A stretch of DNA of 64,000 bases, from assembly GCA_964369315.1 (NCBI GenBank), contig CAYJEJ010000003.1:60528-124527 (forward strand). The letters are read 5' to 3'. The translations under genes were made by a program, and so were the position numbers. Origin of the DNA: an uncultured Alphaproteobacteria bacterium (lineage in GTDB: Bacteria > Pseudomonadota > Alphaproteobacteria > UBA3830 > JAIRWN01). Positions 7,492 to 30,907 of the stretch are shown one piece after another; position 1 is the first letter of the stretch; the number at the start of each line of letters is the position of its first letter. The notes beneath the pieces are model-generated. The model was not told where the DNA came from. It made no database searches and saw only the letters and a program-made list of their open reading frames with translations.

Positions 7492-8763
7492 ATGACTAAA
7501 ACTTCTGTTGAAGATAAAAATAGTGATGTTTTGTTTTGCTCTTTTTGTGGCAAAAGCCAGCAAGAGGTGAAAAAACTAATAGCAGGTCCTTCGGTTTTTA
7601 TCTGTGATGAATGTGTTGGCGTTTGTAATGAGATAATGACTGAAATAAAAAAAGACCATGTCAGCACATTTCCAACAGGTATCAAAAAACCCCAAGAAAT
7701 CAAGCGTATCTTGGACGATTATATTATAGGGCAGGAGCAAGCGAAAATTATCCTTTCTGTCGCTGTGTATAACCATTATAAGCGTCTTGCCTTTAAAGAT
7801 GTGGGTGATAGCGAGATAGAATTAGCAAAATCTAACATACTCCTCATTGGTCCAACTGGGACGGGCAAAACCCTTTTGGCTCAAACTTTGGCTAAGATTT
7901 TGGATGTTCCTTTTACAATTGCAGACGCAACAACCCTAACTGAAGCTGGCTACGTTGGGGAAGATGTTGAAAATATTATTGTCAGATTGCTTCAGGTTGC
8001 CGACTATAACGTGGAAAAAGCACAAAGAGGGATAGTCTATATAGATGAGATTGATAAAATATCCCGCAAATCTGAAAACCCTTCAATCACTAGGGACGTG
8101 TCTGGCGAGGGGGTTCAACAGGCTCTTTTAAAATTGATGGAGGGCACGATTGCCTCTATCCCGCCACAGGGGGGACGAAAACACCCACAACAAGAATTGC
8201 TTCAGGTTAATACACAAAATATGCTCTTTATTTGTGGTGGAGCTTTTGCGGGTTTGGAAAAAATAATTGCAGAACGATACAATAAATCATCCATAGGTTT
8301 TAGTGCTCAAATAAATAATTTAGCAGATTTAAATGAGCCAGATATTTTTAAAAACGTAGAATCTGGCGATTTATTAAAATTTGGACTAATTCCAGAGTTC
8401 ATTGGAAGACTGCCTGTGGTTGCGACGCTTTCTGACCTAGATGAAAACGCACTCATAGAAATATTGACTACGCCCAAAAATGCCCTTGTTAAGCAATATC
8501 AACAATTGTTTAATATGGAAAATGCTGAGCTTAGTTTTACAGATGAGGCACTTGTTACAGTCGCCCAACAAGCCATTAAGACAAAAACTGGTGCGAGGGG
8601 GCTCTCATCTATAATGGAAAATGCTTTGTTGAAAACGATGTATGACTTACCATCGCAGGAAAACGTTAATAGCGTTAAATTCGACAAATCAGCGATTTTG
8701 GGAGAAACAGAACCAGAAGTTACTTTTTTAAAAAAGGACGATGAAAAAACAATCGTTCATTAG
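7492..8763 (+). CDS. clpX: ATP-dependent Clp protease ATP-binding subunit ClpX
   Basis: Zinc-binding N-terminus [26 protein letters not shown], Walker A GPTGTGKT, and IVYIDEIDK. Confidence 0.95.
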
Positions 8764-8902
8764 TCTCATTTTAAGCTTTTTTTAAAACCTCTTTTTATAT
8801 AAGTTTTATTATACAGTTTATTAAGCCAATCTATTAATCTTTGCTATATTTTATGCTATAGTGTTTTAATAAGACTATATAATTATTGTATTGGAGAGCG
8901 AG

Positions 8903-9838
8903 ATGGAGAGGTTACTTGACCCGAAGAACGACTGGGCGTTCAAGCAGTTGTTTGGTCAAGAGAAGAACAAGAAGATATTGATAAGTTTTCTGAACGCGAT
9001 GTTGGAAGGCGTTGAGTCTTTGGTGGTTGATGTGGAGTTTTTGAAAGTTGAAACGGACACAGAGATACAGGCACTGAGGCAAAGCATAGTTGACGTGTTG
9101 TGCAAAGCAGAAGACGGGCGAAGGTTTATAGTCGAGATGCAGAGCTCGTCGGACTCTAGTTTTATTCAGAGGGCAGTTGAATATGCGAGCAGGGTATATT
9201 TAAACCAGCGGACGCGGGCAGCAAAAGAGAGGCACGACGGAGGCGGGAGAAAGGCGGTTTGTCCAGTGATTTTTCTTGCGGTTGTAGAGAAGAAGTTGTT
9301 CAAGGACATAGAGGGATATTTGACGCACCATCGGATACAGGAGGTTGTGACAGGCAGGTGCGAGATTAGGGAGATGTCGTTTTCGTTTTTGGAGCTGTCG
9401 AAGTTTGATAAGGGTTTTGATGAATTGGAGAGCGATGTAGACAGGTGGGCATATTTTTTCAAGCATGCGGACATGGTCTCGCCGGAGAGGTTGAGGGAGA
9501 TATTTGAGAGTAAGACGATATTCGGAGAGGCGTATAAGGAGCTTGAGCGTTCGGGATATTCGCCTGAGCAGTTACTAGAATATGTGAGGTATGAGTTAAA
9601 GGAAGAAGAGATTCAAACCCGCATAACCGACGCCACCCTCAAAGGCGAGAAGAAAGGCAGAGCCGAGGGCGAGAAGAAAGGCAGAGCTGAAGGTGAGAAG
9701 AAAGGCAGAGCCGAGGGTGAGAAGAAAGCAAAAACAGAAACTGCTCGAAATCTTTTATTAATGGGGCTGGGTGATAGCCAAATATCTCAAGCGACAGGCT
9801 TGTCGATTGATGAAATTAGAAGTTTGGGCAAAACGTAA
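8903..9838 (+). CDS. Rpn/YhgA-like PD-(D/E)XK recombination-promoting nuclease / putative transposase
   Basis: N-terminus LLDPKNDWAFKQLFG...ILISFLNAML...DVLCKAEDGRRFIVEMQ is typical of this family. It is visibly more GC-rich than its neighbours. An alternative TTG start lies at 8891. Confidence 0.75.
   Translation: MERLLDPKNDWAFKQLFGQEKNKKILISFLNAMLEGVESLVVDVEFLKVETDTEIQALRQSIVDVLCKAEDGRRFIVEMQSSSDSSFIQRAVEYASRVYLNQRTRAAKERHDGGGRKAVCPVIFLAVVEKKLFKDIEGYLTHHRIQEVVTGRCEIREMSFSFLELSKFDKGFDELESDVDRWAYFFKHADMVSPERLREIFESKTIFGEAYKELERSGYSPEQLLEYVRYELKEEEIQTRITDATLKGEKKGRAEGEKKGRAEGEKKGRAEGEKKAKTETARNLLLMGLGDSQISQATGLSIDEIRSLGKT
9644..9730 (+). repeat. in-frame 24-nt tandem repeat (about 3.6 copies) encoding GEKKGRAE
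   Basis: Units GGCGAGAAGAAAGGCAGAGCCGAG at 9644, 9668 and 9692, plus a partial unit at 9716. Substitutions are mostly third-position. Confidence 0.9.
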
Positions 9839-9882
9839 TAAAATATAGGTGTCAAAGATAAAATAATGAATTTACTCCACCT

Positions 9883-11037
9883 CTATAAAACAACCCTTTC
9901 TAGTATTTTGACGCATTTTGATATTGTCATGCCGTAGTTGGTGATGGCGACGTTATTTTTTTGACATATATTAATTCTAGACTTAATGCCCCTAGAATTG
10001 AGCATACATCCACCACAGTGCACAACTAGTCTAAATTCGCTTAGGTTATTAACGAAACCTTTGCCTTGAGAAAAATAAAAGTCCAGTTTTTTTCCAGTAT
10101 AGGCGGACAATAATTTGGGAATTTTCACCCTCGCAATATCATCTTCCATGGTTGTGTGTGAGCATGCTTCGGATATCAGGACTTTATCTCCATCAATAAG
10201 CTCATCGATTGTATCGGTGCCGTCTAAAAAGGTTTCATAGCCATACATACTTTTACATAATAATATTGAAAAAGTAGTCAATTTTACGTGCTTGGGAACA
10301 GTTGATGATATATCAGCTATACATTGAGAGTCTGCTATGACCATTTTGATATCACTAAAGTCGACAAATTGTAATTGCTCAGGCTGAACTGAGATGACAA
10401 TCGCATTTATATCTAATAATTCTCTTATAGTTTGCACCTGTGCGAGGATTAGTCGACCCTTTGGTGCCTCGCCATCAATTGGGATTACTAGGATGATTTT
10501 GTCATTTTTGCGTATGACCTTTTCTAAAAATCGCTCTTCTTTTTCTTTGGGTGCATTATCGAATATTAGTTGTTTTAATTTGTCTATATTTTTATTATAC
10601 AGGGCACTTACGAACAGAGCATTATTGTTATCAACCTCCGGCGGCTGATTTGATTCATCGTTTTTATTATATACAATGATATATGGAATACAGAGCGATT
10701 TTATTTGTTCTATTAATTTTTGCTCTATTGTTGAAATCTTATTGTCACCTATGACAACAAGTGCCATATCAGATATCTCTAGTGCAGAAAAAGTCGCTGC
10801 TTTTCGCTTTTCTCCCAATGCCGAGCTATCATCCACCCCAGCGGTATCATAAAAAACAATTGGTCCAAAACCAATAAATTCATATGCTTTTGTTACAACG
10901 TCGGTTGTGGTGCCCGATATTTCGGACACTATAGAGATTTCTTGCTCACAAATAGCGTTTAATAAGCTAGACTTTCCCGCGTTGGTCTTGCCCACTATAG
11001 CGATGCTATATCTCATGTTAATCGGCGTTTTATTCAT
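9883..11037 (-). CDS. hydF: [FeFe]-hydrogenase H-cluster maturation GTPase HydF
   Basis: GTPase P-loop GKTNAGKSS and a C-terminal CSH-x45-HCGGC cluster-binding motif (family pattern CxHx44-53HCxxC). The start overlaps the hydE stop by 8 nt. Confidence 0.85.
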   Translation of the reverse strand: MNKTPINMRYSIAIVGKTNAGKSSLLNAICEQEISIVSEISGTTTDVVTKAYEFIGFGPIVFYDTAGVDDSSALGEKRKAATFSALEISDMALVVIGDNKISTIEQKLIEQIKSLCIPYIIVYNKNDESNQPPEVDNNNALFVSALYNKNIDKLKQLIFDNAPKEKEERFLEKVIRKNDKIILVIPIDGEAPKGRLILAQVQTIRELLDINAIVISVQPEQLQFVDFSDIKMVIADSQCIADISSTVPKHVKLTTFSILLCKSMYGYETFLDGTDTIDELIDGDKVLISEACSHTTMEDDIARVKIPKLLSAYTGKKLDFYFSQGKGFVNNLSEFRLVVHCGGCMLNSRGIKSRINICQKNNVAITNYGMTISKCVKILERVVL

Positions 11038-12043
11038 AATGAACCTGTTTTTTACTGCGTCCTGAGTTGCTTTTATTCACCATTAGCCCGATATCGGTGA
11101 TTTGTTTTTCTAATGATTCTAATCCTTCGGCTAAGCCAGATTTGGCAGAACCTTTTCCAGGATAGATACTATATTTTTCTCTATATATTTTTGGTGTGAA
11201 GGACATCATAACGACATTACACCCCCTTTTGAGACCTTTTTCTATACCAAGTGGGTCAACAACCTTTAAAGCGTTTGTAAAAGGGATGTTCACATAAGGG
11301 TCTAAAATTCTATATATTGCACACGCCCTGTATATTATATCCTTCCCACACGCTGTTTCATCAGCTAGGGGAGTGTTTGAGGTTGGAATGAATGGAGATA
11401 TTGAAAACATGTGTATGCCAAGGTCTTTCATCGTAATCAGGTCTTTTGCAAGTTTTTCGGTTGTATATCTTGGCAGACCAGCTAAAAAACCAGAGCCAAC
11501 TTGATATTTGTGCTTGATTAAACTCTTAAGCCTGCTTAAACGGTTCTCTAGGGTTGAGTTTGGTCTTATTGTTTTATATATCGGACGTTGCAGGGTCTCC
11601 ATTTTTAAGAGATATCGGTCTGCTCCAAGACTTTTCCATTTAGCATATGTATCGTCAGAGTGTTCACCATAAGATAGGGTGATATCTGCCTTAGTGAGCT
11701 CTTTTATAATAGGAAGAGCCTTATTAATCACAGGAACTTGTTGTGGAGATTCCCCTCCTTGAAGAACAATACTTGAAAGCCCACATTTTGAAACCTCTAA
11801 AGCCGAATCAGTAATTTCTTGCTCCGACATACTATATCGATTAATGCCCTGCGAACTTTTTCTCAATCCGCAATATAAACAGTCCATGAAACACTGGTTT
11901 GAGGTTTCTATTATTCCCCGAATAAAAACCTCTTTGCCATAAATTTGCTCTTTTATCCTGTTTGCGGTTTTAAAAAGCCACTCGTCATCTCTTCCTGATA
12001 ATAGCTCTTTGATATCTTTATACGTAAATATCATTTGCTCCAC
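11030..12043 (-). CDS. hydE: [FeFe]-hydrogenase H-cluster radical SAM maturase HydE
   Basis: Radical-SAM CFMDCLYCGLR (CX3CX2C). The blocks GADRYLLKMET...IRPNSTLENRL and YSIYPGKG align with characterised HydE. Confidence 0.85.
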   Translation of the reverse strand: MEQMIFTYKDIKELLSGRDDEWLFKTANRIKEQIYGKEVFIRGIIETSNQCFMDCLYCGLRKSSQGINRYSMSEQEITDSALEVSKCGLSSIVLQGGESPQQVPVINKALPIIKELTKADITLSYGEHSDDTYAKWKSLGADRYLLKMETLQRPIYKTIRPNSTLENRLSRLKSLIKHKYQVGSGFLAGLPRYTTEKLAKDLITMKDLGIHMFSISPFIPTSNTPLADETACGKDIIYRACAIYRILDPYVNIPFTNALKVVDPLGIEKGLKRGCNVVMMSFTPKIYREKYSIYPGKGSAKSGLAEGLESLEKQITDIGLMVNKSNSGRSKKQVHYE

Positions 12044-13415
12044 ACTTTATAGAATCAATTTTTTTCTCGATTTCACTAGGGTTTTTAGTTTGTGCTATTA
12101 ATTTCTTTACAAGTTCATCGCCTGCGACTTGAGTTTTTTCAGAGGCATAATCTCTTAGGTATTCTGCGAATGTAAAAATCGCATTAGGTAAGCAGAAATT
12201 TTTTATAAAGTTATTTTTAGCCAATCCCATAAAGTTATCGCCCGTTCTGTCTTTACGATAGCATCCCGTACAAAACGAGGGGACATAACCATCTTGCACC
12301 AATGCAAAAATCACTTCATCTAGAGACCTGTCATCCCCAACAGTAAACTGTTGTGCCTCTTCCAAATTTGTTTTTGACATTTTATACCCACCTGGATAAA
12401 CCTTAGATGCCGCACTCAATTGCGAAATTCCTAGGCTAATAAGTTCGTTTCTCATAGCCGCATTTTCCCTAGTGCTGATAATAAGCCCAGTATATGGAAC
12501 CGCAATTCTCATAATCGCTATGGTTCTTTTTAACTGTTTATCGGTTAATTGAGCGGGCGGATTATAGGACATTTCTGACCCTAATGCAGGCTCAATCCTT
12601 GGAAAAGAAATCGTATGAGGACCAACCCCCATGTCTTTTTCCAATTGTTCAACATGTTTTAAAACGGCAAGTGTTTCAAACTTATAGTCATATAGCCCAT
12701 ATAAGGCACCAATGCCAACATCATCGATGCCAGCTTCCATGGCACGATGCATTGCGTACAACCTGTATAAGTAATCCGTTTTTTTACCAAAAACATGGAC
12801 TTTTTCATAAGTGGGCTTATGGTATGTTTCCTGAAAGCATTGATATGTTCCAATGTTTCCTGATTTTAATTTTCTGAAGTCGTCAACATCCATTGGGGCT
12901 AGGTTTACGTTGATTCTTCGTATCTCTCCGCTTTTGCCAGTTTTCACGCTATAGGCAGCAGAGATTTGCTCAACTATAAGCTCCATGTCGTATTCAGACT
13001 CTCCCCAGACCATCAAAAGACGCTTATGACCCATTTCTTCTATGATTTTAACTTCTTCTTTTATCTCATTATTTGTAAGAATTCTTCTTTTTAACTCTTT
13101 GTTGTCTTGACGAAATCCGCAATATAAACAAGAGTTTTTGCACACATTTGACACATAAAGTGGAGCAAACAAAACCATGCGGTTTCCATAAACTCTCTCT
13201 TTAATCTCTCTTGCGACATTTTCTATTTCTTTTTCGAGCTCTTCATCTGTGTTTTGCAATAAAATCGCCATTTCCTTTAAAGACAATTTTTTGTGGTTTA
13301 TGTCACGGGCGTTTTCTAATATTTGAAGGACGTCTTTTCCATTGGATTTTTGGGTATCTTCTAGGAGGGAGTTGATTTCTTCTTCGTTTATAAAGTTTTT
13401 CATAATGCTAAACAC
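12018..13415 (-). CDS. hydG: [FeFe]-hydrogenase H-cluster radical SAM maturase HydG
   Basis: Radical-SAM CKNSCLYCGF plus the HydG-specific C-terminal CTGC-x22-C (CX2CX22C), which distinguishes HydG from ThiH. It overlaps hydE by 26 nt. Confidence 0.85.
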   Translation of the reverse strand: MFSIMKNFINEEEINSLLEDTQKSNGKDVLQILENARDINHKKLSLKEMAILLQNTDEELEKEIENVAREIKERVYGNRMVLFAPLYVSNVCKNSCLYCGFRQDNKELKRRILTNNEIKEEVKIIEEMGHKRLLMVWGESEYDMELIVEQISAAYSVKTGKSGEIRRINVNLAPMDVDDFRKLKSGNIGTYQCFQETYHKPTYEKVHVFGKKTDYLYRLYAMHRAMEAGIDDVGIGALYGLYDYKFETLAVLKHVEQLEKDMGVGPHTISFPRIEPALGSEMSYNPPAQLTDKQLKRTIAIMRIAVPYTGLIISTRENAAMRNELISLGISQLSAASKVYPGGYKMSKTNLEEAQQFTVGDDRSLDEVIFALVQDGYVPSFCTGCYRKDRTGDNFMGLAKNNFIKNFCLPNAIFTFAEYLRDYASEKTQVAGDELVKKLIAQTKNPSEIEKKIDSIKCGANDIYV

Positions 13416-13597
13416 CTTAAGTTAATATACTAGTGATTGTATAATGTTATTAAATTTTATACAATATTTAAAATAATAAAAATAATATTTTCTCCAAAAT
13501 AAAAGAAAATTTTATGCAACCTTAGGTTTTATTTAATGTTGATTATGTTAATTATTTATAATATGTTATAATTGCTCGTAATCTTAAGGAAATGCTT

Positions 13598-14128
13598 ATG
13601 CTTAGAGAATTTGTCACGGCACTGTTTTGTTGCCTGCCTCATCATCATGACGCTCCAGTCGTAGAAAGAATTACTCCCATCACCGTCGTCTCGCAGGAGC
13701 CTTATAGCGATGAAGCGTACAGACAGGCTATAGAGAGTAGACGGTATGAAGATGTTGCAAGCTTGATGATGCGAAGAGCTAAAGATAAATACGGGCAAGA
13801 CTTCCTTGATATGATGAATGAAAATTGTGAGCGGTTCGCTCAAGGTAGGAGATATCTAGAACTAGATTTTACAGACAACCTTCTCGTTGATGGCGACCCT
13901 TTATATGAAACTATAAAGTATGTGTGTGAACAAGTCATCCATGTTACGTGGGTAGTTCCCTCACTAATAGCTGTGGCTAGAGAAGGCGTTGATGTAGGGC
14001 TGTCAATAAAAGCACTATTCTGGTGGTTGGTTGATAGAACTGACATAATCACTTCTGGAGAATTCAAGGATTTGCTCAGCTCTATACGTGAGGCACATCA
14101 TGACAGATCCTCATATTCTGCTAAATAA
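13598..14128 (+). CDS. hypothetical protein (GC-rich orphan)
   Basis: This is the longest ORF in the interval. AAGGA lies 7 nt upstream of ATG 13598 (the ORF track starts at ATG 13592). No motif was recognised. Composition is clearly GC-richer than the surroundings. Confidence 0.5.
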   Translation: MLREFVTALFCCLPHHHDAPVVERITPITVVSQEPYSDEAYRQAIESRRYEDVASLMMRRAKDKYGQDFLDMMNENCERFAQGRRYLELDFTDNLLVDGDPLYETIKYVCEQVIHVTWVVPSLIAVAREGVDVGLSIKALFWWLVDRTDIITSGEFKDLLSSIREAHHDRSSYSAK

Positions 14129-14136
14129 TAAATGTA

Positions 14137-14892
14137 CTAAGACAAAAATTGCTCGTCCAAAACGCGGTCTTCTAGTCTAGATTTGGGGTTGAATAACAAG
14201 TTGATTGATATGGTGGTGTTTTGTCGAACTTTTATTTGCGTTATCTCTCTAAACTCTAGGTAATCGGCAACCGCTCTTACAGGTCTTTTGGATTGTTCAT
14301 TAACCTCTATATCGATTGTTTCACAATTGCGGAGCAATGCTCCTCGCCACCTGCGAGGACGAAACGTATTAATCGGGGTCAGTGCTAACAGCTGTGAGCC
14401 GATTGGAATTATTGGTCCATGAGCTGAGAGGTTATACGCCGTGCTACCGGCAGGTGTGCTGATTATGATGCCATCGCTAATGATTTCTTCAAGTTTTGTT
14501 TTGCCCGATATACTTATCTTAAGTTTTGCCGCTTGATGAGTTTCCCGTAATAAATAGACTTCGTTTATAGCGTTTGCTGTGTGCACATTTCCGTTTATAT
14601 CGGTTGCTTCCATAAGTAAGGGATGCAATATGCTCGAGACGGATGATTTGATTTTTTCTGGTAAATCTTCTAGTGAAGGGAGGTTGGTTAAAAAACCAAT
14701 GTTGCCAAAATTTATCCCATATATTGGAATGTTATTGTTAATGTTTTTGTGTATTGTCCTGAGCATTGACCCGTCACCGCCTATAACAACGATGACGTCA
14801 GCTTGGTTTATTTCAAAATGTCCATATTTTTTAACTAAAAGTTCAATGGTTTCACGATTTTTTTCTTGATTTCCAGTGAAGTGTATACGCAA
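14137..14892 (-). CDS. nadK: NAD kinase
   Basis: The GGDGSMLR motif is present and the length of 251 aa fits. Confidence 0.85.
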   Translation of the reverse strand: MRIHFTGNQEKNRETIELLVKKYGHFEINQADVIVVIGGDGSMLRTIHKNINNNIPIYGINFGNIGFLTNLPSLEDLPEKIKSSVSSILHPLLMEATDINGNVHTANAINEVYLLRETHQAAKLKISISGKTKLEEIISDGIIISTPAGSTAYNLSAHGPIIPIGSQLLALTPINTFRPRRWRGALLRNCETIDIEVNEQSKRPVRAVADYLEFREITQIKVRQNTTISINLLFNPKSRLEDRVLDEQFLS

Positions 14893-14921: not shown

Positions 14922-17900
14922 TTATATATAAAATTCTTCCAACTTTGATAAGATTTCGGCATTAATATCATATTTTCCTAAATCTAGTGTTACATCATGT
15001 CGATTTATTGAACTTTTTAACTCTATTGGTATGCCAATATCAGATTGGGGGACTTGGCTAAGTATTTGTTGTATTTTACTTAAGTCGTTTTCGTCATTAA
15101 ATTTAAGCTGTAATTTATTTAGATTTTTCTTTATAGCATCATCAAGAGGTTCAACAGATTGTACGTTTAAACGTAAAACATCTTGGTAAATTTTTCCTAT
15201 AATAGATAGTTTCAGCATGCTACCAGACTTGAGGAGCTCGCGATTGGCGAACAAAACATCTGAAAACATCACAGTCTCAAAAGTGGCACTTGTGTCAGAC
15301 AATGTAATGAAAGCAAATTTGTTGCCTGATTTTGCGATTTTTATTTTTGAATCTAACAAAACCCCAGCTATATTACAGGTTGTGCTTGGATTTTTTTCAA
15401 AATAAGACTCTAATTCAGAAAACCCTTTGATTTGGAGCTTGTTATAATATTTTTTATAACTCTCTAAAGGGTGAGACGAGATATAAAAACCCATCACCTT
15501 TAGCTCATTATTCAACTTTTCTAGGTTTGACCAAGGTGAATATTCAGTCAATATGCCATCATCTTTCAGAATTGCGTTGTCGTTTTTCATGTCAAATAAA
15601 GAAGCTTGATTAGAATTTTTGGTTTCTTGTTCTTTTGCTCCAATATTTAAGACTTTTTCGATGTTTTCAAATAACATCCTCCTATTGGGGTTTATAGAGT
15701 CAAAACAACCAGCACAAATCAACCCCTCAAGATGTTTTTTGTTTGCAACCTTGGAGTCAAATACACTTGCAATATCTGTGATGCCAGCATAATCTCTCTT
15801 CAAACTTTTTCTCTTAGAAACCAAGCTTTCCATCGCAACGACGCCTTGTCCTTTTATAGCAGATAAGCCATATCGAATAGCCAGCTTATTGTTTTTGGTT
15901 TCAACTGAAAAATCTGGCTCTGATTTGTTAATATCTGGGGGCAAAAGTTCGATGCCGAGTTTTTCCAACTCCTGTTTATATACTGATAATTTTTCAGTAT
16001 TATTCAAGTCGAGGTTCATCGTGGCAGTCATGAACTCTACGGGGTAGTTAGCTTTTAGATATGCGGTTTGATACGATATGAGTGCATATGGAGTGGAGTG
16101 ACATTTGTTAAAGCCGTAACTGGCAAACTTACTTATTTGGTCAAACAGCTTGTCTGCCTCTGCCGAGGGCATATTGTTATGTTGACCAGCACCATCAACA
16201 AATCTTTTTCTCTGTACGTCCATTTCTTCTTTTATTTTTTTACCCATAGCACGCCTTAATAGGTCTGCTTGACCAAGCGTATAACCGCTGAGGACTTGGG
16301 CTATTTGCATAACCTGTTCTTGATAAACCATCACGCCATAGGTTTCTTTCAAAATAGGCTCTATTGAAGGGTGGGCATATACGACGGCTTCTTTACCGTG
16401 TTTGCAGTTAATATATCTTGGGATGTCATCCATTGGACCTGGTCGATAAAGAGCAACCAGTGCAACCAAGTCTTCAAAACGGTCTGGCCTCAGCTGTTTC
16501 GCAACATCTTTCATGCCCCCGCTTTCAACTTGAAAAACACCTGTAGTATCAAGGTTGTTAAACAGTTCAAATGTTTTTTTATCATCTAATGGGATTTCTT
16601 GTAATACGATATTTATTCCCCGTTTTTCTAGGAGATCGATGGTTTGCTGGATAACAGTGAGCGTTTTGAGGCCCAAAAAATCGAACTTAACTAAACCCGT
16701 TTGTTCTATAAACTTCATATTAAACTGGGTGATGGGGATTTCTGACTTTGGGTCGCTATATAGTGCAACGATTTCGTCAAGTGGACGTTGACCAATAACA
16801 ACGCCTGCTGCGTGTGTGGATGCGTGTCTGTAAAGCCCTTCTAATTGCATGGAAATTTTTATTAATTGCGCAACATTTTGGTCATCCTCGATGTGTTTTT
16901 TTAATAACGGCTCCATTTCCATCGCTTGAGCTATCGTGATGTTTAATGATGGGTTATTTGGGATTAATTTGCATATTTTATCAACATACCCATATGGCAT
17001 TTGTAGAACTCGCCCAACATCGCGTAAGACCGCCCGAGCCTGCAACTTTCCGAATGTGATTATTTGTGCAACCTTGTCTTTTCCATAACGCTGGCGGACA
17101 TATTCTATGACCTCATCTCGACGCTTTTGACAAAAATCTATATCAAAGTCAGGCATCGATACGCGTTCTGGGTTCAAAAATCTTTCAAAAAGCAAAGAAA
17201 ATTTTAAGGGGTCGACGTCTGTAATCGTCAGCGACCAAGCCACCACTGAACCAGCACCAGACCCACGACCAGGTCCTACGGGGATTTTATTGGACTTCGC
17301 CCATTGAACAAAATCAGAAATAATAAGAAAATATCCGCAAAAACCCATCTTGGATATTACTTGAATTTCATAATCTAGGCGGTCAAAGTATTGTTTGGCA
17401 AAATTCTCAAACTCTGAATCAGGGATTTGATATAATTTTTTTATGGTATCTAGGCGAGCTTTTAAGCCTATTTTTGATTTTTCATACAACTCGTCCTCTT
17501 CTGTTTTTCCGTCAGAAACAGGAAAAGAGGGGAGCATCGGTTTTTTACTCTCGACCATGAAAGAACATCTTTGAGCGATTATTGATGTGTTATTTATCGC
17601 CTCTGGTAAGTCAGCGAATAGCTGTTTCATCTCTTGTTGTGATTTAAAATAATACTCCGGTGATGAAGACAGGCGGGTTTCGTCGTTTATTGTTTTTCCT
17701 TGACCTATGCATAGGAGGACGTTGTGTGCCTCATGCATTTTTGGGGTTTCAAAAAAAACGCTATTGGTTGCCACGATTGGCAAGTTTAAATCAAAAGCGA
17801 TGTTTAGAAGGTCATCTTCTATTTGGTCTTCGGCGGGGTCATGATGCCTTGATATTTCGATATAAAAGCGATTTAAAAATGCACTAGATAAATCTTTTGC

Positions 17901-18404
17901 ATAGGACACGCCGCAATCTTTGTCCACAGATAACAACCGTGCGATGGAGCCATTTTTCCCTCCGCTTAAGGCGATAATTCCATCAGTCAGCCCCTGAAGT
18001 TGACCGAAATTTAATTCAGGCGTCCCAAGGGGGTTAGATGGGTTCAAATAAAACATGCTGGCAAGTTTTATGAGGTTTTGATAGCCCTGTTCATTTTGAG
18101 CCAACATCAGCAATTGGTCAGAAAAAGTGTTTTCTTGAAACGTCTTATGGCTCGATAAAGCTGACCCAATAGTCAAGGGTGGGGGAGTGATGTTTAAAAT
18201 GCAGCCGATTATTGGTTGCACACCGTTTTTTGAACATTCTATTGAAAATTCTAGGACGCCAAACATGTTTCCCAAATCGGTCAATGCTATTGCGGGCATA
18301 TTATTTTCTACGCAAAGTCTGACCAATTTGCTAACCTTTATCGCCCCCATAGATAAAGAATAAGCCGAGTGCGAACGCAAGTGAACAAAAGGGGTGTCGT
18401 TCAT
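14922..18404 (-). CDS. dnaE: DNA polymerase III alpha subunit
   Basis: 1160 aa with PHP-domain N-terminus FVHLRSHSAYSL and polymerase core PDFDIDF. Confidence 0.95.
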   Translation of the reverse strand: MNDTPFVHLRSHSAYSLSMGAIKVSKLVRLCVENNMPAIALTDLGNMFGVLEFSIECSKNGVQPIIGCILNITPPPLTIGSALSSHKTFQENTFSDQLLMLAQNEQGYQNLIKLASMFYLNPSNPLGTPELNFGQLQGLTDGIIALSGGKNGSIARLLSVDKDCGVSYAKDLSSAFLNRFYIEISRHHDPAEDQIEDDLLNIAFDLNLPIVATNSVFFETPKMHEAHNVLLCIGQGKTINDETRLSSSPEYYFKSQQEMKQLFADLPEAINNTSIIAQRCSFMVESKKPMLPSFPVSDGKTEEDELYEKSKIGLKARLDTIKKLYQIPDSEFENFAKQYFDRLDYEIQVISKMGFCGYFLIISDFVQWAKSNKIPVGPGRGSGAGSVVAWSLTITDVDPLKFSLLFERFLNPERVSMPDFDIDFCQKRRDEVIEYVRQRYGKDKVAQIITFGKLQARAVLRDVGRVLQMPYGYVDKICKLIPNNPSLNITIAQAMEMEPLLKKHIEDDQNVAQLIKISMQLEGLYRHASTHAAGVVIGQRPLDEIVALYSDPKSEIPITQFNMKFIEQTGLVKFDFLGLKTLTVIQQTIDLLEKRGINIVLQEIPLDDKKTFELFNNLDTTGVFQVESGGMKDVAKQLRPDRFEDLVALVALYRPGPMDDIPRYINCKHGKEAVVYAHPSIEPILKETYGVMVYQEQVMQIAQVLSGYTLGQADLLRRAMGKKIKEEMDVQRKRFVDGAGQHNNMPSAEADKLFDQISKFASYGFNKCHSTPYALISYQTAYLKANYPVEFMTATMNLDLNNTEKLSVYKQELEKLGIELLPPDINKSEPDFSVETKNNKLAIRYGLSAIKGQGVVAMESLVSKRKSLKRDYAGITDIASVFDSKVANKKHLEGLICAGCFDSINPNRRMLFENIEKVLNIGAKEQETKNSNQASLFDMKNDNAILKDDGILTEYSPWSNLEKLNNELKVMGFYISSHPLESYKKYYNKLQIKGFSELESYFEKNPSTTCNIAGVLLDSKIKIAKSGNKFAFITLSDTSATFETVMFSDVLFANRELLKSGSMLKLSIIGKIYQDVLRLNVQSVEPLDDAIKKNLNKLQLKFNDENDLSKIQQILSQVPQSDIGIPIELKSSINRHDVTLDLGKYDINAEILSKLEEFYI

Positions 18405-18689: not shown

Positions 18690-19799
18690 TTATTTTTCTA
18701 AGTGCTTTAAGTAAATAATATTAATTTCGTTTTTTGTTCCAAGCCTAAGTGGAACGCCGAATGTTCCCACTCCTTCCGATATATAAATGTCCATATTCCC
18801 TAGTTTATATCGACCGCTCGAATATTCAAAAAAAGCTTTACTAAACAGGGTAATTGGCCACATCTGTCCACCACCATGTGTATGACCAGAAATCATTAGA
18901 TTAAACCCTGTCTTGTTTGCATATTTTGCACCATATGGTGCGTGTTGGATTAAAATGGATGGTTTTTTCTCATCCAATGAAATTGTCGAGAGGAAATCAT
19001 TCAAATAAATGTCATTAGGGCTTTTATGAACACCAACTGAATCTTTGTCTGAATCTAAGTAATCTGTTCCCACAAACTGCACTCCTTCAATTTCTATTTG
19101 AGTGTTTTCTAGGTGTATGAAGCCAAGCTCTCTGATAAGGTTTTTGATTTCTGGATAACAAACGTAAGTTTCATGATTGCCTTCAGTAAAGATGACTTTT
19201 CCTTTAAATTTCGATAAAGTTTCTTTCACATTTTTTTGTAACCTATAGTTATCTTCAAACAAATCGCCATTTAAAATAACAATGTCTGGATTATGTTTAT
19301 TTGTGATTTCAATAACTTTTTTTAAATATTTGTTTGTTTGAAAATGACCCAAGTGGATGTCTGGTAAATGAGCAATAACAAGCTCTTTTTTTAGATTTGG
19401 CATCTTTACATCAATTTTTGATATTGTTAACTTTTGACCATTATGCCAAGAAACAGCAGTTAAAATAATGGCGATTAGAAGTGAAATACTAATAGGGTGT
19501 GGTACAGGAACACTTAATCCCTTTAGGATAAATGTTACATAAATCAAAACCCCAAAGAATGCTTGCAACATAAACAATACTGCCACAAAAACGTAAGCAT
19601 TAGTAAACCAAGAACCAACTTCAAAGTTTTTTTTCAGCCCAAACATGGCTAAAAACACCACTAAAACGCTCAAATAGGCGATGGATATGGCAAATTTTCC
19701 AAAAAAAGAGGCTTTTATCATGTGCCCAATAATAATTGGTGTGATGAAAAAAGATGACATGATAGTAATCACAAATGCTATGAGTAAGATTTTTTCCAC
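18690..19799 (-). CDS. membrane-anchored metallophosphoesterase (calcineurin-like)
   Basis: The N-terminal ~120 aa are hydrophobic with several predicted TM helices. They are followed by the DIHLGH, GDLFED, GNHE and GHTHGG metallophosphoesterase motifs. Confidence 0.8.
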   Translation of the reverse strand: MEKILLIAFVITIMSSFFITPIIIGHMIKASFFGKFAISIAYLSVLVVFLAMFGLKKNFEVGSWFTNAYVFVAVLFMLQAFFGVLIYVTFILKGLSVPVPHPISISLLIAIILTAVSWHNGQKLTISKIDVKMPNLKKELVIAHLPDIHLGHFQTNKYLKKVIEITNKHNPDIVILNGDLFEDNYRLQKNVKETLSKFKGKVIFTEGNHETYVCYPEIKNLIRELGFIHLENTQIEIEGVQFVGTDYLDSDKDSVGVHKSPNDIYLNDFLSTISLDEKKPSILIQHAPYGAKYANKTGFNLMISGHTHGGGQMWPITLFSKAFFEYSSGRYKLGNMDIYISEGVGTFGVPLRLGTKNEINIIYLKHLEK

Positions 19800-19886: not shown

Positions 19887-21344
19887 TTAGTTTTTCGTGT
19901 GTTCGCTTATTTTTTCTATGTAATAGTCGTCTGGTTTATCTACTCTATAAAAATAGCTATCATCAGATTCAATGGCATTAGTGTCGAAGACTTTTTCTAA
20001 TATTTCTTTCGAGCGTTCATCAGGTAATCTCCTTACGTATAATTTATATGGTTTATCAATATCGCAATAGTCAAAAAAAACAAAAGCATGGAAGCGGTCT
20101 AGGGCTTCTTCTTTAAGGCATGTCTTGACATTATTTTTTTCAAAATATTTTCCCAGAACCTCTTCGGATAGATATTTCTTTGAAGAAACCATATTATTGT
20201 TCTTATCAAAGGTAATTTCGGACCCAAAACTTTTATATGCCATCACAGGTTTGTGTTCATGTTGCTCTGGGTTCTGCTTTTCATCACCTATAACCAGTAC
20301 AATAATATCGTGTTCTTTTATGATACCGTTCTTTTGCCATTTTTCTACATCTTTACTTTTGTCCAGAATACTATTAGCCCATCTAGATTTTTTTATATCA
20401 TCATCACCGAACTGACCCTCTATCTTGCCATAAGTAGTGTCTTGTGTAGAATATTCACACCCTTGTTTAACGGGACCTTCATCACCTGTCTGTGTTGTGT
20501 TTTGACCATTAATATCAGTATGTTCAGAGTGTCTTTTTTGCGTGTCCTGATAGCACGTGCATTCGATGAATATATTATAATCTTTGCATTCAATTTTAAA
20601 ATCTGGACCACCTTTATCTTTGCCTAGACTACCATTACTAACTTTATAACCGGATTTTTTTAAATTATAGGCTACATTTAATTCAACGAGCCGACTAAAA
20701 GTTTTTCCTGCTTCATTCTTTTTATTATTAAACTCCTTTTTAAAGTTGGCATCTAGTAGCCCTTTTGCCACACTATACTTATACTCAAAAAATGGTTGGC
20801 ATCGTTCGTTACACTTTTTAAAATAGTAACAGTTTCGTTTGTTGATGGTTTTTGAGAAGCTAGCTTTTATTTCATTATAATAATCACTACCATAATTTTC
20901 ATCAAATAGCCTTTCTTCTTTAAAGTATTTTACGAAGGAGTATTTTGTTAATTTTGGGTTTTTGGGGTTTTTTCTAACAAATTCTAGTTCGTATCCGCAT
21001 TTTTCATAAAATTTTGGTGCTAAGAACTCTGAAGTCCAAAGATTTATGTTCCAATATCCTTTTTCCTTGAAATTTTTCTCTAATTCAGCAAGAAGTGTTT
21101 TCCCAAAACCTTGTTTTCGATATTTTTCCTCAACCCATAACATATCGACATAAATCTCGTCATATATGGTCAACGCTTTTATCATACCGATTAACTCCTG
21201 ATTGCTCTCATCAGTCATAAGCATCCAAAAGGGATGATAATTAGAATCTATATTATGAGCACCATCATGTTTTTTCCAACTTTCCTTTACTTTTTCCTCA
21301 AGTTGTTTCGAAATTTTGTCTACTGTTTGTATATTAAATTTCAT
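19887..21344 (-). CDS. GNAT N-acetyltransferase fused to an uncharacterised ~330-aa C-terminal region
   Basis: The N-terminal ~150 aa carry the GNAT motif A RKQGFGKTLL and KFYEKCGYE. The C-terminal part has no recognised family but contains E...GGPDFKIE...NIFIECT, a PD-(D/E)XK-like arrangement. Confidence 0.7.
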   Translation of the reverse strand: MKFNIQTVDKISKQLEEKVKESWKKHDGAHNIDSNYHPFWMLMTDESNQELIGMIKALTIYDEIYVDMLWVEEKYRKQGFGKTLLAELEKNFKEKGYWNINLWTSEFLAPKFYEKCGYELEFVRKNPKNPKLTKYSFVKYFKEERLFDENYGSDYYNEIKASFSKTINKRNCYYFKKCNERCQPFFEYKYSVAKGLLDANFKKEFNNKKNEAGKTFSRLVELNVAYNLKKSGYKVSNGSLGKDKGGPDFKIECKDYNIFIECTCYQDTQKRHSEHTDINGQNTTQTGDEGPVKQGCEYSTQDTTYGKIEGQFGDDDIKKSRWANSILDKSKDVEKWQKNGIIKEHDIIVLVIGDEKQNPEQHEHKPVMAYKSFGSEITFDKNNNMVSSKKYLSEEVLGKYFEKNNVKTCLKEEALDRFHAFVFFDYCDIDKPYKLYVRRLPDERSKEILEKVFDTNAIESDDSYFYRVDKPDDYYIEKISEHTKN

Positions 21345-21512: not shown

Positions 21513-24500
21513 TTAAAAATAATCTTTGTTGGTTTTTTTAATAATATTTTCTAATTTTTTGGAAATTGTATCCGATGGATTTTTACCCAAATTAAATCGA
21601 TTAATTCGAATGAATTGACATCCGTATCCCTCCAAAATTTTTTCTCGTTCTATGTCTGATTTTTTGTAATAAAATTCGTAGTTAAAATGATTTACTTCCG
21701 ATAAATTTGTAAAATGTTCTTTAAAACCATCATACTCAATAATAATATTATTCGATTGATTTTTATTTCTATATTGTAGAAAAAAATCACAACGATATCT
21801 TGGATGGTTATATCTATGGTCAAGTTGTTTTAAGTAGTCACCAATGGGAAACTGAGCTTGGATAGAAAAGAATTCTCGGTTTTTTTGATAAAATTGAGCG
21901 TCTTGAATCCATAACAATACTTTTTGCTCCATGGGAGAGGATGGGTCGACATCTTCTTTTGAGGGCAGTTCTTTAGCCTGTAAAAGTTGATTTTCATAAA
22001 AGTTTAAAGCTGTTCTTATAGAGCCAGAGAATTCATTAATTGGTTTGCTGAGTACGAAGTGCATGCATTCTTTAGCCCTACTAAAACCAACGTTAAGACG
22101 TTGTAACCTAATCTTTTTTACATCATCATTTGAATCTTCAATATTTGCAGAAAATATGTAGTTTGTTTTATCAGAGACAGGGGAGGCAGTCATCGAATAA
22201 AAGATAATGTCCCTCTCTTCACCTTGACAGCTGTCAAATGTCATAATTTTTAATTTTAATTTGAGGTAAATATCTTCTGCAAATTTTGATTTTCTAACTA
22301 CATTAGAAATGAACTTTTGTTGATTAACAAATGGAGTTATGACACCAACTGATGTCGATGATTTTTCTGAAACAAGGCGTTCAAGTTCTTGCACAATAAA
22401 TTCAGCTTCAAAAGGGTTAGTATTATTATCTTCTGGGGTTTCTAATTTTTCATCATGTTGTAAAACAGTAAATTTTAAAACATCGTCAATGGGTTTTCCT
22501 CGGATTTTTATCGCCTGAAGTTGCCCATCATAAAAATATTTGCTTGAAAATGAAATAATTTCTCGATATCCTCTAAAGTGTTTACGTAGCATGATACTGT
22601 AATTGGCAATAAAAGAGAAAAAATCTAAGACTGAGGTTTTAATATCAAGCTGTTTCATCCTTTCTAATTGCAGTGTATCTTTGGAAATATTGTCTTTAAA
22701 TGATATTATCAATTTATCCAAATAACTATTGCTAATAATTTTACTCGCAGCGGATGTTTTAACGTTGCTAAATTGTCTCGTATCACCAAGGACTATAATT
22801 TTTTTTGCCCTTAAAATTGCTGGAAACGCTTGTGCTAAACTTACCTGTGACGCCTCATCAATAATGACAAGGTCAAACAGCCCTTCTTTTAGTGGGATAT
22901 ATTCTGAATAATTACGAATGCCCGCTATTATACAAGGAAAGGTTTCTTTTATGTTATCAAACTCGACACGTGGAAATTTTTGTCTTTTAGAAATGATATT
23001 TTTAAGTGTTGTTGATGTGCTTCTTTTATTTTCATAAAAATCCAATACTTTGTCATCAATTGAAGAAATCATCAATAAGGTGTGGAGTTTCGATATTTGT
23101 TGACTATAGTTTAGGTAGTTCATATCTGGAATGGAAGAAAATATTTCTTTATATTCCGTTTTCTTTTTACAATATTCATCAACAAGGCAAGTTTGTTTTA
23201 GAAGGGACTTTATAGATTCCCTATCTTTTGTTGCTACGAAAGAAAGGTCTATGCCTAAATTTTTTAAGATATTAATTTCTGGAACACCTAATTTAGGAAT
23301 TGGGAATGTGTCTGATATTTTTGACAAAAAATCAATATAAGAAGAATCGTTATTTGTTGTAAAAAAATCATAAAATTCCATAAATTCTTTTTTAGGAAAA
23401 TTTTGTTTGTTTGCTAAATCGATAATTTCATCAATCGCAACAAGAGTTTCTATAATTAATGGTGCCTCTTGCGAAAGGTTAAGATGTTTTTCTAATTTAA
23501 AAATATCATTCAATCTTTGCTCAAGGGCAACTACTTGAGACTTATATAAAAATTTAAAAAACTTTTTTGATAAAAGGTTATATTGTTTTACAATGCTTCT
23601 AATCTCTAAGAGAGGTTGTTCTTCCATTTTAAGCATTATATCTAAGTGATGGTGTAGTCGATATTTATCGTACCATGAACAAATTGAAACAAATAAGTCG
23701 ATAGTTTCTTTTAAGTTTTTATCGTTCCAAGAAGAGAGTTGGTTATTCAGGTATTGGATAAAGACGTTTAGCACTTTTTCATCAAAACTGTCGTGTAAGT
23801 TTATTAAGAATTCAAAGAAAGATTTAATATTTGGGAGTATTGGAGAGATTAAATTAATGCCATCGATATTCTGTTCGCCAATTTTTTGTTCGATTGTTTT
23901 TTCTAATTTGATAAAATTGTTTAATTCCTTAATGTTAATTTTGTCATAATAATTTATGGTTTGTTCAATTTTATTAATTAACTCTTTTTTCTCTTTGCAA
24001 ATTTTAGAGTTTATATCTTCTAATTCTTCGCTACAAATATAGTGATTTCGAATCTTACTAATAGATGTATGACTAAATATTTTACTAAAATTAGGTTTAT
24101 CTAGACGAAGTATTGGATTTGAGAAATTTTCTGCCCCTCTTACTTTATTGCATGTGTCATTGATTTTGTCTTGAACGACATCTAGAGCCTCTGTTTTGTC
24201 GGAAAGGATTAAAACAGATTTGCCTTTCATAATCATATCAAAAACAATTGCGGTAATTGTATGACTTTTGCCAGTACCTGGGGGACCTTGTACGGCAATA
24301 CATTTGCAATCTTTTTCATTCAAGGCAGTTATAATTTTTCTTTGTTCTGCATTTAAGGGAACAGGTGAATCATAAACCAAGCGTTCTGATATATTTTTTT
24401 GTTCCCAATCGGTTTCTATTTCTTTACGACGCGAGATTGGGTCTTCTAAAATAAAAGATTTTAAAAAGTCGACAAAAGCAAGAGATAACGGGTTGTTTTC

Positions 24501-30587: not shown

Positions 30588-30629
30588 TTATTATGTGTTA
30601 CAGTCATGAAGTTATTTTTATAACTATGG

Positions 30630-30907
30630 CGATAAACGTTATAAGTAATAGATGTTTTGGACCCGAGGGCGGAACTCGGCACCTCCACCAAGATTAGGTT
30701 TTTTGCGGGGGTGAATTAGGCTCGACAGATATTGAAAGTTATAATTTTCGCTCGGCATGGTACCGTCGTTATCGGGCTAAAACTAATAAGTGCAAACGAT
30801 AATTTTGCATTGACAGATGAGTTGAAAGCTGCTGCTTAGTTTAAGCAAGGCTTGAAGACTTTTTTGTCGCGGTTTAGGGGCTCCGGGCAACAGAAAGCCC
30901 CTGTTTT
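30630..30907 (+). ncRNA. ssrA: tmRNA (ssrA), circularly permuted two-piece alphaproteobacterial type
   Basis: The acceptor piece ends with T-arm CCGAG-GGCGGAA-CTCGG plus CACCTCC-A-CCA at 30690. After a 16-nt spacer, the coding piece starts GGGGGTG at 30707 and pairs with a G3:U. The tag ORF GCA AAC GAT AAT TTT GCA...TAG (30792-30839) encodes ANDNFALTDELKAAA. A terminal hairpin AGGGGC/GCCCCT plus T-run lies near 30876-30907. The outer boundaries are approximate. Confidence 0.8.

Follow-up and report, generated by a model that had tools for sequence, protein, structure and literature searches.

The roles of the maturases HydG, HydE and HydF in the assembly of the 2Fe subcluster of [FeFe]-hydrogenases are established biochemistry of these protein families. 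The hydGXEF/hydEFG systems of Shewanella oneidensis and its relatives encode the same three proteins as the locus reported here, likewise in the order G-E-F, and the HydG proteins of the Shewanella group are the nearest named relatives of the HydG studied here (about 59% identity). All three maturases are also present in the alphaproteobacteria Phaeospirillum, Pararhodospirillum and Pleomorphomonas, and in gut metagenome-assembled genomes (MAGs) designated 'Azospirillum/Acetobacter sp. CAG' (Degli Esposti et al. 2016, PMC4967309); hence, the trait is not foreign to the Alphaproteobacteria. In the host-associated Anoxychlamydiales, the hydEFG cluster lies apart from a hydA-nuoE-nuoF cluster; hydA was found elsewhere in these MAGs, and their maturases are sister to the eukaryotic ones (Stairs et al. 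2020, PMC7449678).

The window analyzed here, a 64-kb stretch of metagenome-derived DNA, carries a hydG-hydE-hydF block that is situated, as its coordinates confirm, between clpX and nadK-dnaE. We consider it likely that this block is a functional, long-resident and vertically inherited operon of a Holosporales-related alphaproteobacterium, and that its client hydA is located, unlinked, elsewhere in the genome. The features of the locus are as follows.

7492-8763: clpX, left neighbour of the hyd operon
8891-9838, plus strand: gene for an Rpn-family PD-(D/E)XK nuclease/putative transposase (TIGR01784, PF12784)
9883-11037, minus strand: hydF, predicted GTPase scaffold/carrier for the 2Fe subcluster (TIGR03918)
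11030-12043, minus strand: hydE, radical-SAM maturase (TIGR03956; CX3CX2C at C51)
12018-13403, minus strand: hydG, 461 amino acids from the ATG at 13403; the mechanically called reading frame reaches a GTG at 13415
13416-13591, no strand assigned: AT-rich intergenic region upstream of hydG (GC 0.165), presumed to contain the operon promoter and to be shared with the divergently oriented ORFan
13592-14128, plus strand: lineage-specific ORFan of 178 amino acids, divergent from hydG
14137-14892: nadK, right neighbour
14922-18404: dnaE, right neighbour beyond nadK

A first-pass annotation of this DNA had recognized the three minus-strand maturase genes; the reading frames at 12018-13415, 11030-12043 and 9883-11037 exist, their products pass the family tests, and the diagnostic motifs that had been described are all present. 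HydG scored 500.4 bits against the NCBIfam equivalog model TIGR03955 (cut-off 312), while its score of 301.7 bits against the model of the paralogue ThiH fell below the ThiH cut-off of 380. It aligns over residues 3-460 to structure 4WCX (E = 3e-140) with the segment GVGPHTIS conserved, and carries both the N-terminal radical-SAM motif CX3CX2C (C92-C96-C99) and the C-terminal auxiliary-cluster motif CX2CX22C (C382-C385-C408), the latter being absent from ThiH. HydE passes TIGR03956 marginally (263.3 bits; cut-off 254.6), yet its identity is secured because it matches the Thermotoga maritima HydE structures over its full length (E = 7e-67), with PylB, the best-scoring structure other than HydE, as a far weaker match (2e-16). 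TIGR03956 also describes this protein clearly better than the competing families PylB (115.7 bits), BioB (81.6 bits) and HmdB, and its radical-SAM cysteines are C51-C55-C58. HydF scored 438 bits against TIGR03918 (cut-off 326) and matches structures 5KH0 and 3QQ5 (E of about 1e-74); the Pfam domains MMR_HSR1 (PF01926), HydF_dimer and HydF_tetramer (PF18128, PF18133) together cover residues 12-383. The GTPase motifs G1, G3 and G4 are present as the P-loop GKTNAGKS, DTAG and NKND, and the [4Fe-4S] ligands of the CxH...HCxxC type (C292-S-H294 and H339-C340-G-G-C343) align to those of 5KH0. The hydG, hydE and hydF genes are bona fide maturase genes with every diagnostic motif kept.

The three genes are tightly packed. 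With the starts of the open reading frames as given, hydG and hydE overlap by 26 nt, and the stop codon of hydE and the start codon of hydF overlap by 8 nt within ATGAATAA; the overlaps reported earlier are thus correct for these starts. An AAGGTG Shine-Dalgarno sequence precedes the ATG of hydG at 13403 and the HydG proteins of close relatives all comprise 461 amino acids, so that this ATG is the more probable start of hydG; hydE may begin at the ATG at 12034, in which case its overlap with hydG is 17 nt. A compact, mostly overlapping G-E-F block also occurs at three of the fetched loci of relatives (L097, L098, L101), with HydE encoded at a position equivalent to the one that overlaps hydG and hydF in the window. 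This arrangement supports a translationally coupled operon. Upstream of hydG, the minus strand carries three sigma-70-like matches (13587-13558, 13569-13542 and 13453-13424); the total of such matches was not above shuffled expectation, nor were the counts from the promoter and terminator scans, and the region 13416-13591 contains no Rfam family.

From these features, and by analogy with the biochemistry of the three families, the following course of events can be proposed. Transcription would proceed leftward from the AT-rich region 13416-13591, and translation would be coupled via the overlapping stop and start codons. HydG would then cleave tyrosine to yield an Fe(CO)2(CN) synthon, which HydE would process towards the 2Fe dithiomethylamine subcluster; the GTPase HydF would bind the precursor at its [4Fe-4S] site before delivering it to apo-HydA.

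The operon is flanked by two genes that had been regarded as GC-rich and foreign-looking and had given rise to the proposal that the module was probably acquired laterally. The Rpn gene, which faces hydF tail to tail at a distance of 44 bp, indeed fits this description: it exceeds the cut-offs of its families (TIGR01784, 120.5 bits versus 52.1, 1e-34; PF12784, 149 bits versus 27.4, 2e-43), its PHROG match is a transposase, and its composition deviates strongly from that of the window (GC 0.472; GC3 0.570, z = 4.4). It contains an internal 24-nt tandem repeat at 9642-9737, occurs once in the window, is not bounded by inverted repeats, and has no counterpart near the hyd genes in any fetched locus of a relative. 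The ORFan on the right is an orphan as described, but its GC-richness had been overstated, since its values exceed those of the window only slightly (GC 0.426, z = 1.4; GC3 0.374, z = 0.8). It belongs to no Pfam, NCBIfam, PHROG or PADLOC family, and a search among 1.84 billion representatives returned only itself and one spurious match to a repeat protein; its AlphaFold2 prediction has a pLDDT of 42. In relatives, no counterpart adjoins hydG, and the ORFan bears no similarity to the short genes without annotation that flank hydG in L084, L097 and L098. No link between the ORFan and the hyd genes was found, and it would appear to be unrelated to the operon. The Rpn gene, the sole foreign-looking gene here and one that lies outside of the hyd module, probably represents an independent and recent arrival beside it.

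A recent lateral acquisition, in which hydGEF would have been inserted between clpX and nadK as a mobile module with, or by means of, the Rpn gene and the ORFan, can draw on the atypical composition of the putative transposase gene and on the gene order around clpX, which differs in both nearest ClpX relatives, their neighbourhoods being completely different. This difference in gene order renders the suggested comparison of the clpX-nadK interval, which was carried out with these two relatives, uninformative; gene order is generally scrambled in these genomes and the lack of synteny is thus not specific to this interval. The hyd genes themselves are compositionally native: their GC content (0.365-0.379) matches the window mean of 0.374 (z between -0.2 and +0.1), their GC3 (0.33-0.35) that of the window (0.332; z between -0.1 and +0.2), and their codon usage is among the most typical, with Jensen-Shannon divergences (0.028-0.043) far below those of the 15 most deviant genes. 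No direct or inverted repeats bound the 8.9-14.1 kb segment, and neither a genomic-island test based on atypical cargo composition nor one based on a mobility gene with boundary repeats and a recurring association identified an island. Neither the Rpn gene nor the ORFan stands beside any other hyd locus. In our view, recent lateral acquisition is therefore quite unlikely.

An assembly or binning artefact, through which the hyd segment would have been joined as a chimera from another organism in the metagenome, is conceivable insofar as the source is an unannotated 126-kb MAG contig and some relatives are evidently mislabelled taxonomically (for example, 'Lactobacillaceae' on a contig of the Gram-negative type). 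Composition and codon usage run continuously through clpX, hydFEG, nadK and dnaE; the hyd genes are embedded between core housekeeping genes within one long contig, and the identical ClpX, HydG and HydF entries all stem from a single contig of 126,360 bp. We hence judge such an artefact to be extremely improbable.

The long-term history of the operon can be traced in the trees of its products. In the HydG tree, the window groups with three sister MAGs (GCA_964369365.1, GCA_964368695.1 and GCA_964370055.1) at 99% neighbour-joining bootstrap support and falls within a wider clade of AT-rich genomes (96%), a clade that is recovered in the HydF tree as well. Phylogenies had been proposed as a means to find the donor lineage; those of HydG and HydF recover this AT-rich clade. 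The clade adjoins gammaproteobacterial HydG proteins, a position that would favour lateral transfer, but the bootstrap value for its grouping as sister to Shewanella and relatives is only 52%, and the clade's ancestor may or may not have received the genes through an ancient transfer. Three subclades (L001/L083, L097/L098 and L084/L101) have retained the genes that flank the hyd locus although their HydG identities have fallen to 61-84%. Among relatives, the G-E-F block has stayed in place while the sequences diverged deeply, a finding that argues against recent mobility. While dS is saturated, the dN of HydG is 0.22-0.26; between sister MAGs, dN/dS is about 0.04-0.05, whereas saturation of synonymous sites limits dN/dS to a qualitative statement in the case of the window. 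These sequence comparisons indicate that the hyd genes are under strong purifying selection. No housekeeping gene against which HydG divergence could be calibrated is common to the window and the sister-MAG loci. Metagenomes scanned once with HydF and once with a HydE alignment specific to the clade revealed no close relatives, and neither the source genome nor the sister MAGs were among the matches listed when species genomes were scanned with a HydG alignment. Taken together, native composition, clade membership, synteny within subclades and low dN/dS indicate that the operon has been inherited vertically within an AT-rich uncultured clade, in which it has long been resident, rather than having arrived as a recent island.

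The statement that no hydA is present in the 64 kb withstood three concurring searches. A six-frame scan of the window for the H-cluster motifs L1 (TSCCPxW), L2 (MPCxxKxxE) and L3 (ExMxCxxGCxxG) gave no match, tblastn with nine diverse HydA proteins detected no hydA in it, and a HydA profile HMM built from 33 sequences yielded a best window E-value of 3.8 (positive control, 1e-201). Genes for a ferredoxin, PFOR or another partner are absent from the window too, and the pyruvate dehydrogenase complex encoded there is NAD-linked; these points count against the proposed reading. Absence of hydA from a single window says little, however, because hydA is also missing within 10 kb in 43 of the 78 hydG loci of other lineages (linked in 35). 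In complete genomes, HydA was found in 191 of 200 carriers of HydF (PMC3226654). A conclusion from the missing hydA to orphan maturases is consequently weak. Most likely, the [FeFe]-hydrogenase served by the operon is encoded elsewhere in the genome, unlinked, as seems to be usual in the clade. If the operon is active and such a hydA exists, its bearer would metabolize H2 in a hypoxic or anoxic, probably host-associated niche.

Alternatively, the genome or the entire clade may lack hydA, and hydGEF may be a decaying remnant left by the loss of hydA or may serve another client, such as an unrecognized enzyme with Fe-carbonyl/cyanide ligation or a host hydrogenase. Of the 10 hydG loci of the clade (the 64 kb of the window, and nine further loci with about 142 kb around hydG), 0 have a linked hydA, as against 35 of 78 elsewhere (Fisher p = 0.005, uncorrected for relatedness). 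Some clade members have single hyd genes in dispersed positions or lack them: hydE is missing at the L084 site, which is syntenic with that of L101, hydG stands alone in L082, L002 and L005, and hydF stands alone in L099, L100 and L102, a pattern that might stem from a loss still in progress. Both HydF and HydE evolve fast (the nearest relative of HydF is only 52% identical), and 9 of the 200 genomes with HydF did not score for HydA (PMC3226654). The three genes of the window, on the other hand, are intact with every ligand conserved, the signature of purifying selection speaks against decay, and unlinked hydA is common in bacteria that possess HydA. No non-hyd neighbour recurs throughout the clade, genes for TM1266-like, DUF2157 and GDYXXLXY proteins being confined to one subclade. 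To our knowledge, the HydE, HydF and HydG maturases have no alternative client, and this also weighs against such a scenario. A maturase-only state is, in our assessment, possible but unlikely; its particular version, in which the clade retains hydGEF under selection without a hydA of its own and the client is either the hydrogenase of an anaerobic eukaryote that hosts the bacteria or an unrecognized Fe-CO/CN enzyme, is very improbable. A literature search on maturases without HydA retrieved nothing relevant.

The assignment of the DNA to an AT-rich alphaproteobacterium is backed by its two-piece tmRNA of the alphaproteobacterial type and by ClpX, whose nearest relatives are those of 'Holosporales bacterium' MAGs (76% and 74%). 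The bacterium is thus probably a relative of the intracellular Holosporales, an order known for symbionts of protists that are mostly aerobic. We found no published report of a hydrogenase or of maturases in Holosporales; hence, this is a known kind of operon in a lineage for which the literature we found holds no report of it. Should hydA be present elsewhere in the genome, [FeFe]-hydrogenase-based H2 metabolism would be placed in a Holosporales-like lineage, and an adaptation of these uncultured bacteria to hosts or habitats that are hypoxic or anoxic would be implied. A true absence of hydA would make the case far more interesting, as the maturases would then have an unknown client. The coherent, previously unnamed AT-rich clade would be useful for maturase phylogenies that address the origin of eukaryotic hydrogen metabolism. 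Nothing was found to support the relevance that the first-pass annotation had claimed for the debate on hydrogenosomes: the nearest named matches among the best 120 for HydG or HydF are bacterial (Shewanella, Ferrimonas, Desulfovibrionaceae). No eukaryote is among these named entries and nothing shows a special affinity of the window maturases to eukaryotic sequences, which counts only a little against such relevance, most matches being nameless and the searched set being devoid of eukaryotic sequences.

When set beside the described systems, the locus differs from that of Shewanella, Ferrimonas and Marinobacter (five loci), in which hydG is preceded, at a distance of about 1-2 kb, by a hydrogenase gene of the same cluster, whereas there is none in the 64 kb studied here. 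The alphaproteobacterial genomes with all three maturases also contain at least one HydA and PFOR and are Rhodospirillales-like (PMC4967309), while the window has neither protein; the one gut alphaproteobacterial HydG in our set (UMGS241) is 49% identical and falls outside the clade of the window. The Anoxychlamydiales provide a precedent for unlinked hydA, albeit in another phylum. Closest of all are the AT-rich sister MAGs (L001, L082, L083), with HydG proteins 69-73% identical to that of the window and HydE proteins, encoded adjacent to hydG, that are 54-55% identical. Their loci, of the type TM1266-like (PF21699)-hydG-hydE, have the alphaproteobacterial markers FliX and EipB-like nearby; they carry the small TM1266-like gene upstream of hydG and no hydF. 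The window presents the opposite on both counts: it has hydF joined into the operon, and no TM1266-like gene or degraded remnant of it is found upstream of hydG, including antisense to the ORFan.

The first-pass annotation had described a complete set of [FeFe]-hydrogenase maturase genes, hydG-hydE-hydF, and this description is borne out by equivalog matches, by matches to solved structures, and by the recovery of all the motifs it had listed. The operon and its two immediate neighbours are arranged as follows.

8891-9838, plus strand: gene for an Rpn-family PD-(D/E)XK nuclease/putative transposase, the left neighbour of hydF
9883-11037, minus strand: hydF; NCBIfam equivalog TIGR03918 (438 bits, cut-off 326), Pfam MMR_HSR1, HydF_dimer and HydF_tetramer
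11030-12043, minus strand: hydE; NCBIfam equivalog TIGR03956 (263.3 bits, cut-off 254.6), Pfam Radical_SAM
12018-13415, minus strand: hydG; NCBIfam equivalog TIGR03955 (500 bits, cut-off 312), Pfam Radical_SAM and BATS
13592-14128, plus strand: ORFan, the right neighbour of hydG

Because HydE exceeds its cut-off only narrowly, the three proteins were compared with solved structures. Residues 2-329 of HydE match the Thermotoga maritima HydE (E 7e-67), while the closest non-HydE structure is that of PylB (E 2e-16). HydF matches 5KH0, 5LAD and 3QQ5 at about 1e-74, and HydG matches 4WCX at 3e-140 and 4RTB at 1e-122. HydG carries C92x3Cx2C and C382x2Cx22C, HydE carries C51x3Cx2C, and HydF contains GKTNAGKS, DTAG, NKND, CSH292 and HCGGC340. 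In the established biochemistry of these families, HydG, with its radical-SAM cluster and its C-terminal auxiliary cluster, converts tyrosine into an Fe(CO)2(CN) synthon from which HydE builds the 2Fe precursor; the GTPase HydF, whose [4Fe-4S] site is of the form CxH...HCxxC, delivers this precursor to apo-HydA, the hydrogenase itself.

The gene overlaps noted previously (26 nt for hydG/hydE and 8 nt for hydE/hydF) are right for the ORF starts used there. The most likely start of hydG is the ATG at 13403, which is preceded by AAGGTG and yields a protein of 461 amino acids as in all close relatives; for hydE, the ATG at 12034 is a possible start, in line with the N-termini of its relatives, and the overlap would then be 17 nt. 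The three genes would be transcribed as one message from the stretch of 176 bp (16.5% GC) that lies upstream of hydG, where the count of promoter-like matches is not above chance, and the 8-nt ATGAATAA overlap together with the 17- or 26-nt overlap points to translational coupling. No TM1266-like small gene or remnant of one is present upstream of the window hydG, although such a gene precedes hydG in the sister metagenome-assembled genomes (MAGs). In these, a conserved trio of DUF2157, GDYXXLXY-domain and TM1266-like genes lies 5' of hydG (L001, 8168-9949; L083, 2979-4916; L-numbers denote the fetched hyd loci of relatives); neither the DUF2157 nor the GDYXXLXY gene is known as a hyd accessory, and both are missing from the window.

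The composition of the hyd genes gives no sign of a foreign origin. The GC contents of hydF, hydE and hydG (0.365, 0.379 and 0.372) and their GC3 values (0.345, 0.328 and 0.345) lie close to the window means of 0.374 and 0.332, and their codon-usage divergence from the remaining window (0.028-0.043) is far under the values of the 15 genes that deviate most. The relatives of the window HydG comprise a tight NCBI group (69-73% identity), metagenomic sequences (57-64%) and Shewanella (59%). A neighbor-joining tree that included labelled sequences places it with the three sister MAGs (L001, L082, L083) at 99% bootstrap support and, at 96%, in a wider clade that adds L097, L098, L084, L002 ('Alphaproteobacteria bacterium UBA5343') and L005 (a Lactobacillales-labelled MAG); all loci of this clade are AT-rich (30-42% GC). 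Its union with a Shewanella/Ferrimonas/Marinobacter group received only 52%. In the HydF tree, the window HydF is surrounded by the same genomes, and the operon genes therefore share a history.

Three pairs of loci have kept their flanking genes despite the divergence of HydG, in support of vertical descent: L001/L083 (DUF2157, GDYXXLXY, TM1266-like, hydG, hydE; HydG 84% identical), L097/L098 (kinase, NMO, 209-aa gene, hydG-hydE-hydF, glucokinase, DUF2147; 80%) and L084/L101 (MacAB-TolC, hyd genes, M48 peptidase, MlaD, DUF2155; 61%). Selection on the hyd genes is purifying: dS is saturated in all comparisons with the window at a HydG dN of 0.22-0.26, and dN/dS between sister MAGs is 0.04-0.05. 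Of the earlier reading as a laterally acquired module, the real operon stands, but a recent island does not, since the composition of the hyd genes is native, their trees are concordant, and synteny is kept. The operon is real, intact and under constraint in an unusual lineage.

The claim of two foreign, GC-rich flanking genes holds for the left neighbour only. The Rpn gene (GC 0.472; GC3 0.570, z = 4.4) is clearly foreign by composition, whereas the GC (0.426, z = 1.4) and GC3 (0.374, z = 0.8) of the right neighbour are merely mildly elevated. Present in one copy in the window, the Rpn gene was not found in any fetched hyd locus, and neither it nor the whole 8.9-14.1 kb segment is bounded by direct or inverted repeats; it is unrelated to the hyd operon. 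Near its C-terminus, a 24-nt unit encoding GEKKGRAE is repeated in tandem three to four times (9642-9737); the short region that follows bears a weak likeness to small PHROG families and to the helix-turn-helix part of Wolbachia Wmk. The gene at 13592-14128 is a lineage-specific ORFan: it matched nothing in four family libraries, no real homologue was found in 1.84 billion representatives, its predicted structure has a pLDDT of 42, and no link to the hyd genes was found. Its sole match, to the repeated helical unit of an apolipoprotein-like protein at about 20% identity, was rejected as a homologue.

The reported lack of hydA in the window was confirmed by three independent tests. None of the H-cluster signatures L1, L2 and L3 turned up when all six frames of the 64 kb were scanned. 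Nine diverse HydA proteins from the fetched loci, used as tblastn queries, gave only noise at E <= 1, and the best E-value in the window with a profile HMM of 33 HydA sequences was 3.8 (1e-201 in a positive-control locus). Nor is a ferredoxin, PFOR or NuoE/F-like partner found among the window genes. As evidence, the lack of hydA in the window is weak. A full H-cluster gene lies within 10 kb in 35 of the 78 hydG loci of other lineages in the matches listed and is lacking over that distance in the other 43, so that absence from a single window is common in HydA-bearing organisms. Maturase and hydA clusters are separate in Anoxychlamydiales (PMC7449678), and in a profile of 1,466 genomes a hydrogenase large subunit was scored in 191 of the 200 HydF carriers (PMC3226654, Table 3). 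Together, these data give a high prior for a hydA elsewhere in the genome.

A clade that possesses maturases only, with HydG, HydE and HydF serving another client, would account for the lack of hydA near any of the ten clade hydG loci (covering the window plus about 142 kb from the other clade loci); this contrasts with 35 of 78 loci elsewhere (Fisher p = 0.005, a value inflated by relatedness). It would also fit the splitting of the gene set within the clade, where hydG stands alone in L082, L002 and L005, hydG-hydE lacks hydF in L083, and hydF stands alone in L099, L100 and L102. Given how often hydA is unlinked in other lineages and how regularly HydF carriers score for it, we regard this explanation as very improbable and favour a hydA located elsewhere in the genome. 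The broken-up sets could reflect rearrangement or incipient loss. L101 (7623-11143) has hydG-hydE-hydF, and L084 (10001-12560) has hydG and hydF separated by 14 bp; hydE is absent from the whole 21 kb of L084, though the site is syntenic with L101, a case of either clean loss or relocation. The stand-alone hydF genes of L099 (GCA_037193285.1) and L100 (GCA_037193585.1) are identical; with contig numbers above 400,000, both assemblies are probably very large ones of a host or a community, a hint of a host-associated source.

The remainder of the window consists of housekeeping genes usual for Alphaproteobacteria: mnmA, efp, thiolase, xseA, aspartate kinase, clpX, nadK, dnaE, tolC, murE, the pyruvate dehydrogenase E1-alpha, E1-beta and E2 genes, miaA, trxB, cckA, lolCDE, proS, lon, additional mur and ftsW genes, hdaA, holC and groEL. 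A DltB-like MBOAT membrane acyltransferase gene (31173-32585, minus strand; E 9e-49, below cut-off) directly downstream of pdhA-pdhB-pdhC occupies the spot where dihydrolipoamide dehydrogenase (E3) might be expected; the window has no E3 gene. The gene of lowest GC content lies near dnaE.

21513-25694, minus strand: 1,393-aa gene, GC 0.289 (z = -2.2), the lowest in the window

The C-terminal helicase region of its product resembles the anti-phage proteins ProA, Hhe, MkoA/MkoC and PDC-S37 (E 1e-21 to 1e-43, falling far short of the full-length cut-offs). After it come genes for an AT-rich GNAT-domain protein (485 aa; 19887-21344, minus) and a YaeI-like phosphodiesterase (18690-19799, minus), and the three may form an AT-rich defence or foreign island adjoining dnaE. 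Five AT-rich ORFs have no or faint family matches (37900-38841, minus; 39000-39902, plus; 58647-59483, 60502-61182 and 63420-63890, all minus); one has weak pentapeptide/LRR-like repeats, and codon usage deviates more in the ORF at 39000-39902 than anywhere else in the window.

A two-piece alpha-type tmRNA is encoded at 30572-30930. The window ClpX is 76% and 74% identical to those of two MAGs labelled 'Holosporales bacterium', with the next matches, including 'Alphaproteobacteria bacterium' and Pelagibacter, at 68%; in both nearest relatives the gene order differs entirely from that of the window clpX region. Judged by this one marker and by submitter labels, the organism is probably an AT-rich (about 37% GC), Holosporales-related alphaproteobacterium. 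FliX and EipB-like families are characteristic of Alphaproteobacteria, and their genes neighbour the hyd genes in the sister MAGs, which supports an alphaproteobacterial affiliation of the latter. The labels 'Lactobacillaceae bacterium' for L097 (JGI 3300042603, a 391-kb contig) and 'uncultured Lactobacillales bacterium' for L005 look wrong, because both contigs have genes for type II secretion/type IV pili, L098, a relative of L097, has ankyrin repeats and a Toluene_X gene for an outer-membrane protein, and the HydG and HydF of L097 and L005 fall within the AT-rich clade alongside an alphaproteobacterial MAG.

No paper linking hydrogenases or maturases to Holosporales or Paracaedibacter was found, and eukaryotes are missing from the named entries among the 120 best HydG or HydF matches, most of which are nameless. 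Alphaproteobacteria with complete maturase sets were reported in 2016 among Rhodospirillales relatives and gut MAGs (PMC4967309). The HydG of the gut alphaproteobacterium UMGS241 (L052) is only 49% identical to that of the window and falls outside its clade. Maturase sets as such were already known from Alphaproteobacteria (PMC4967309); what appears to be new is an intact hydGEF operon in this unusual, probably Holosporales-related lineage.
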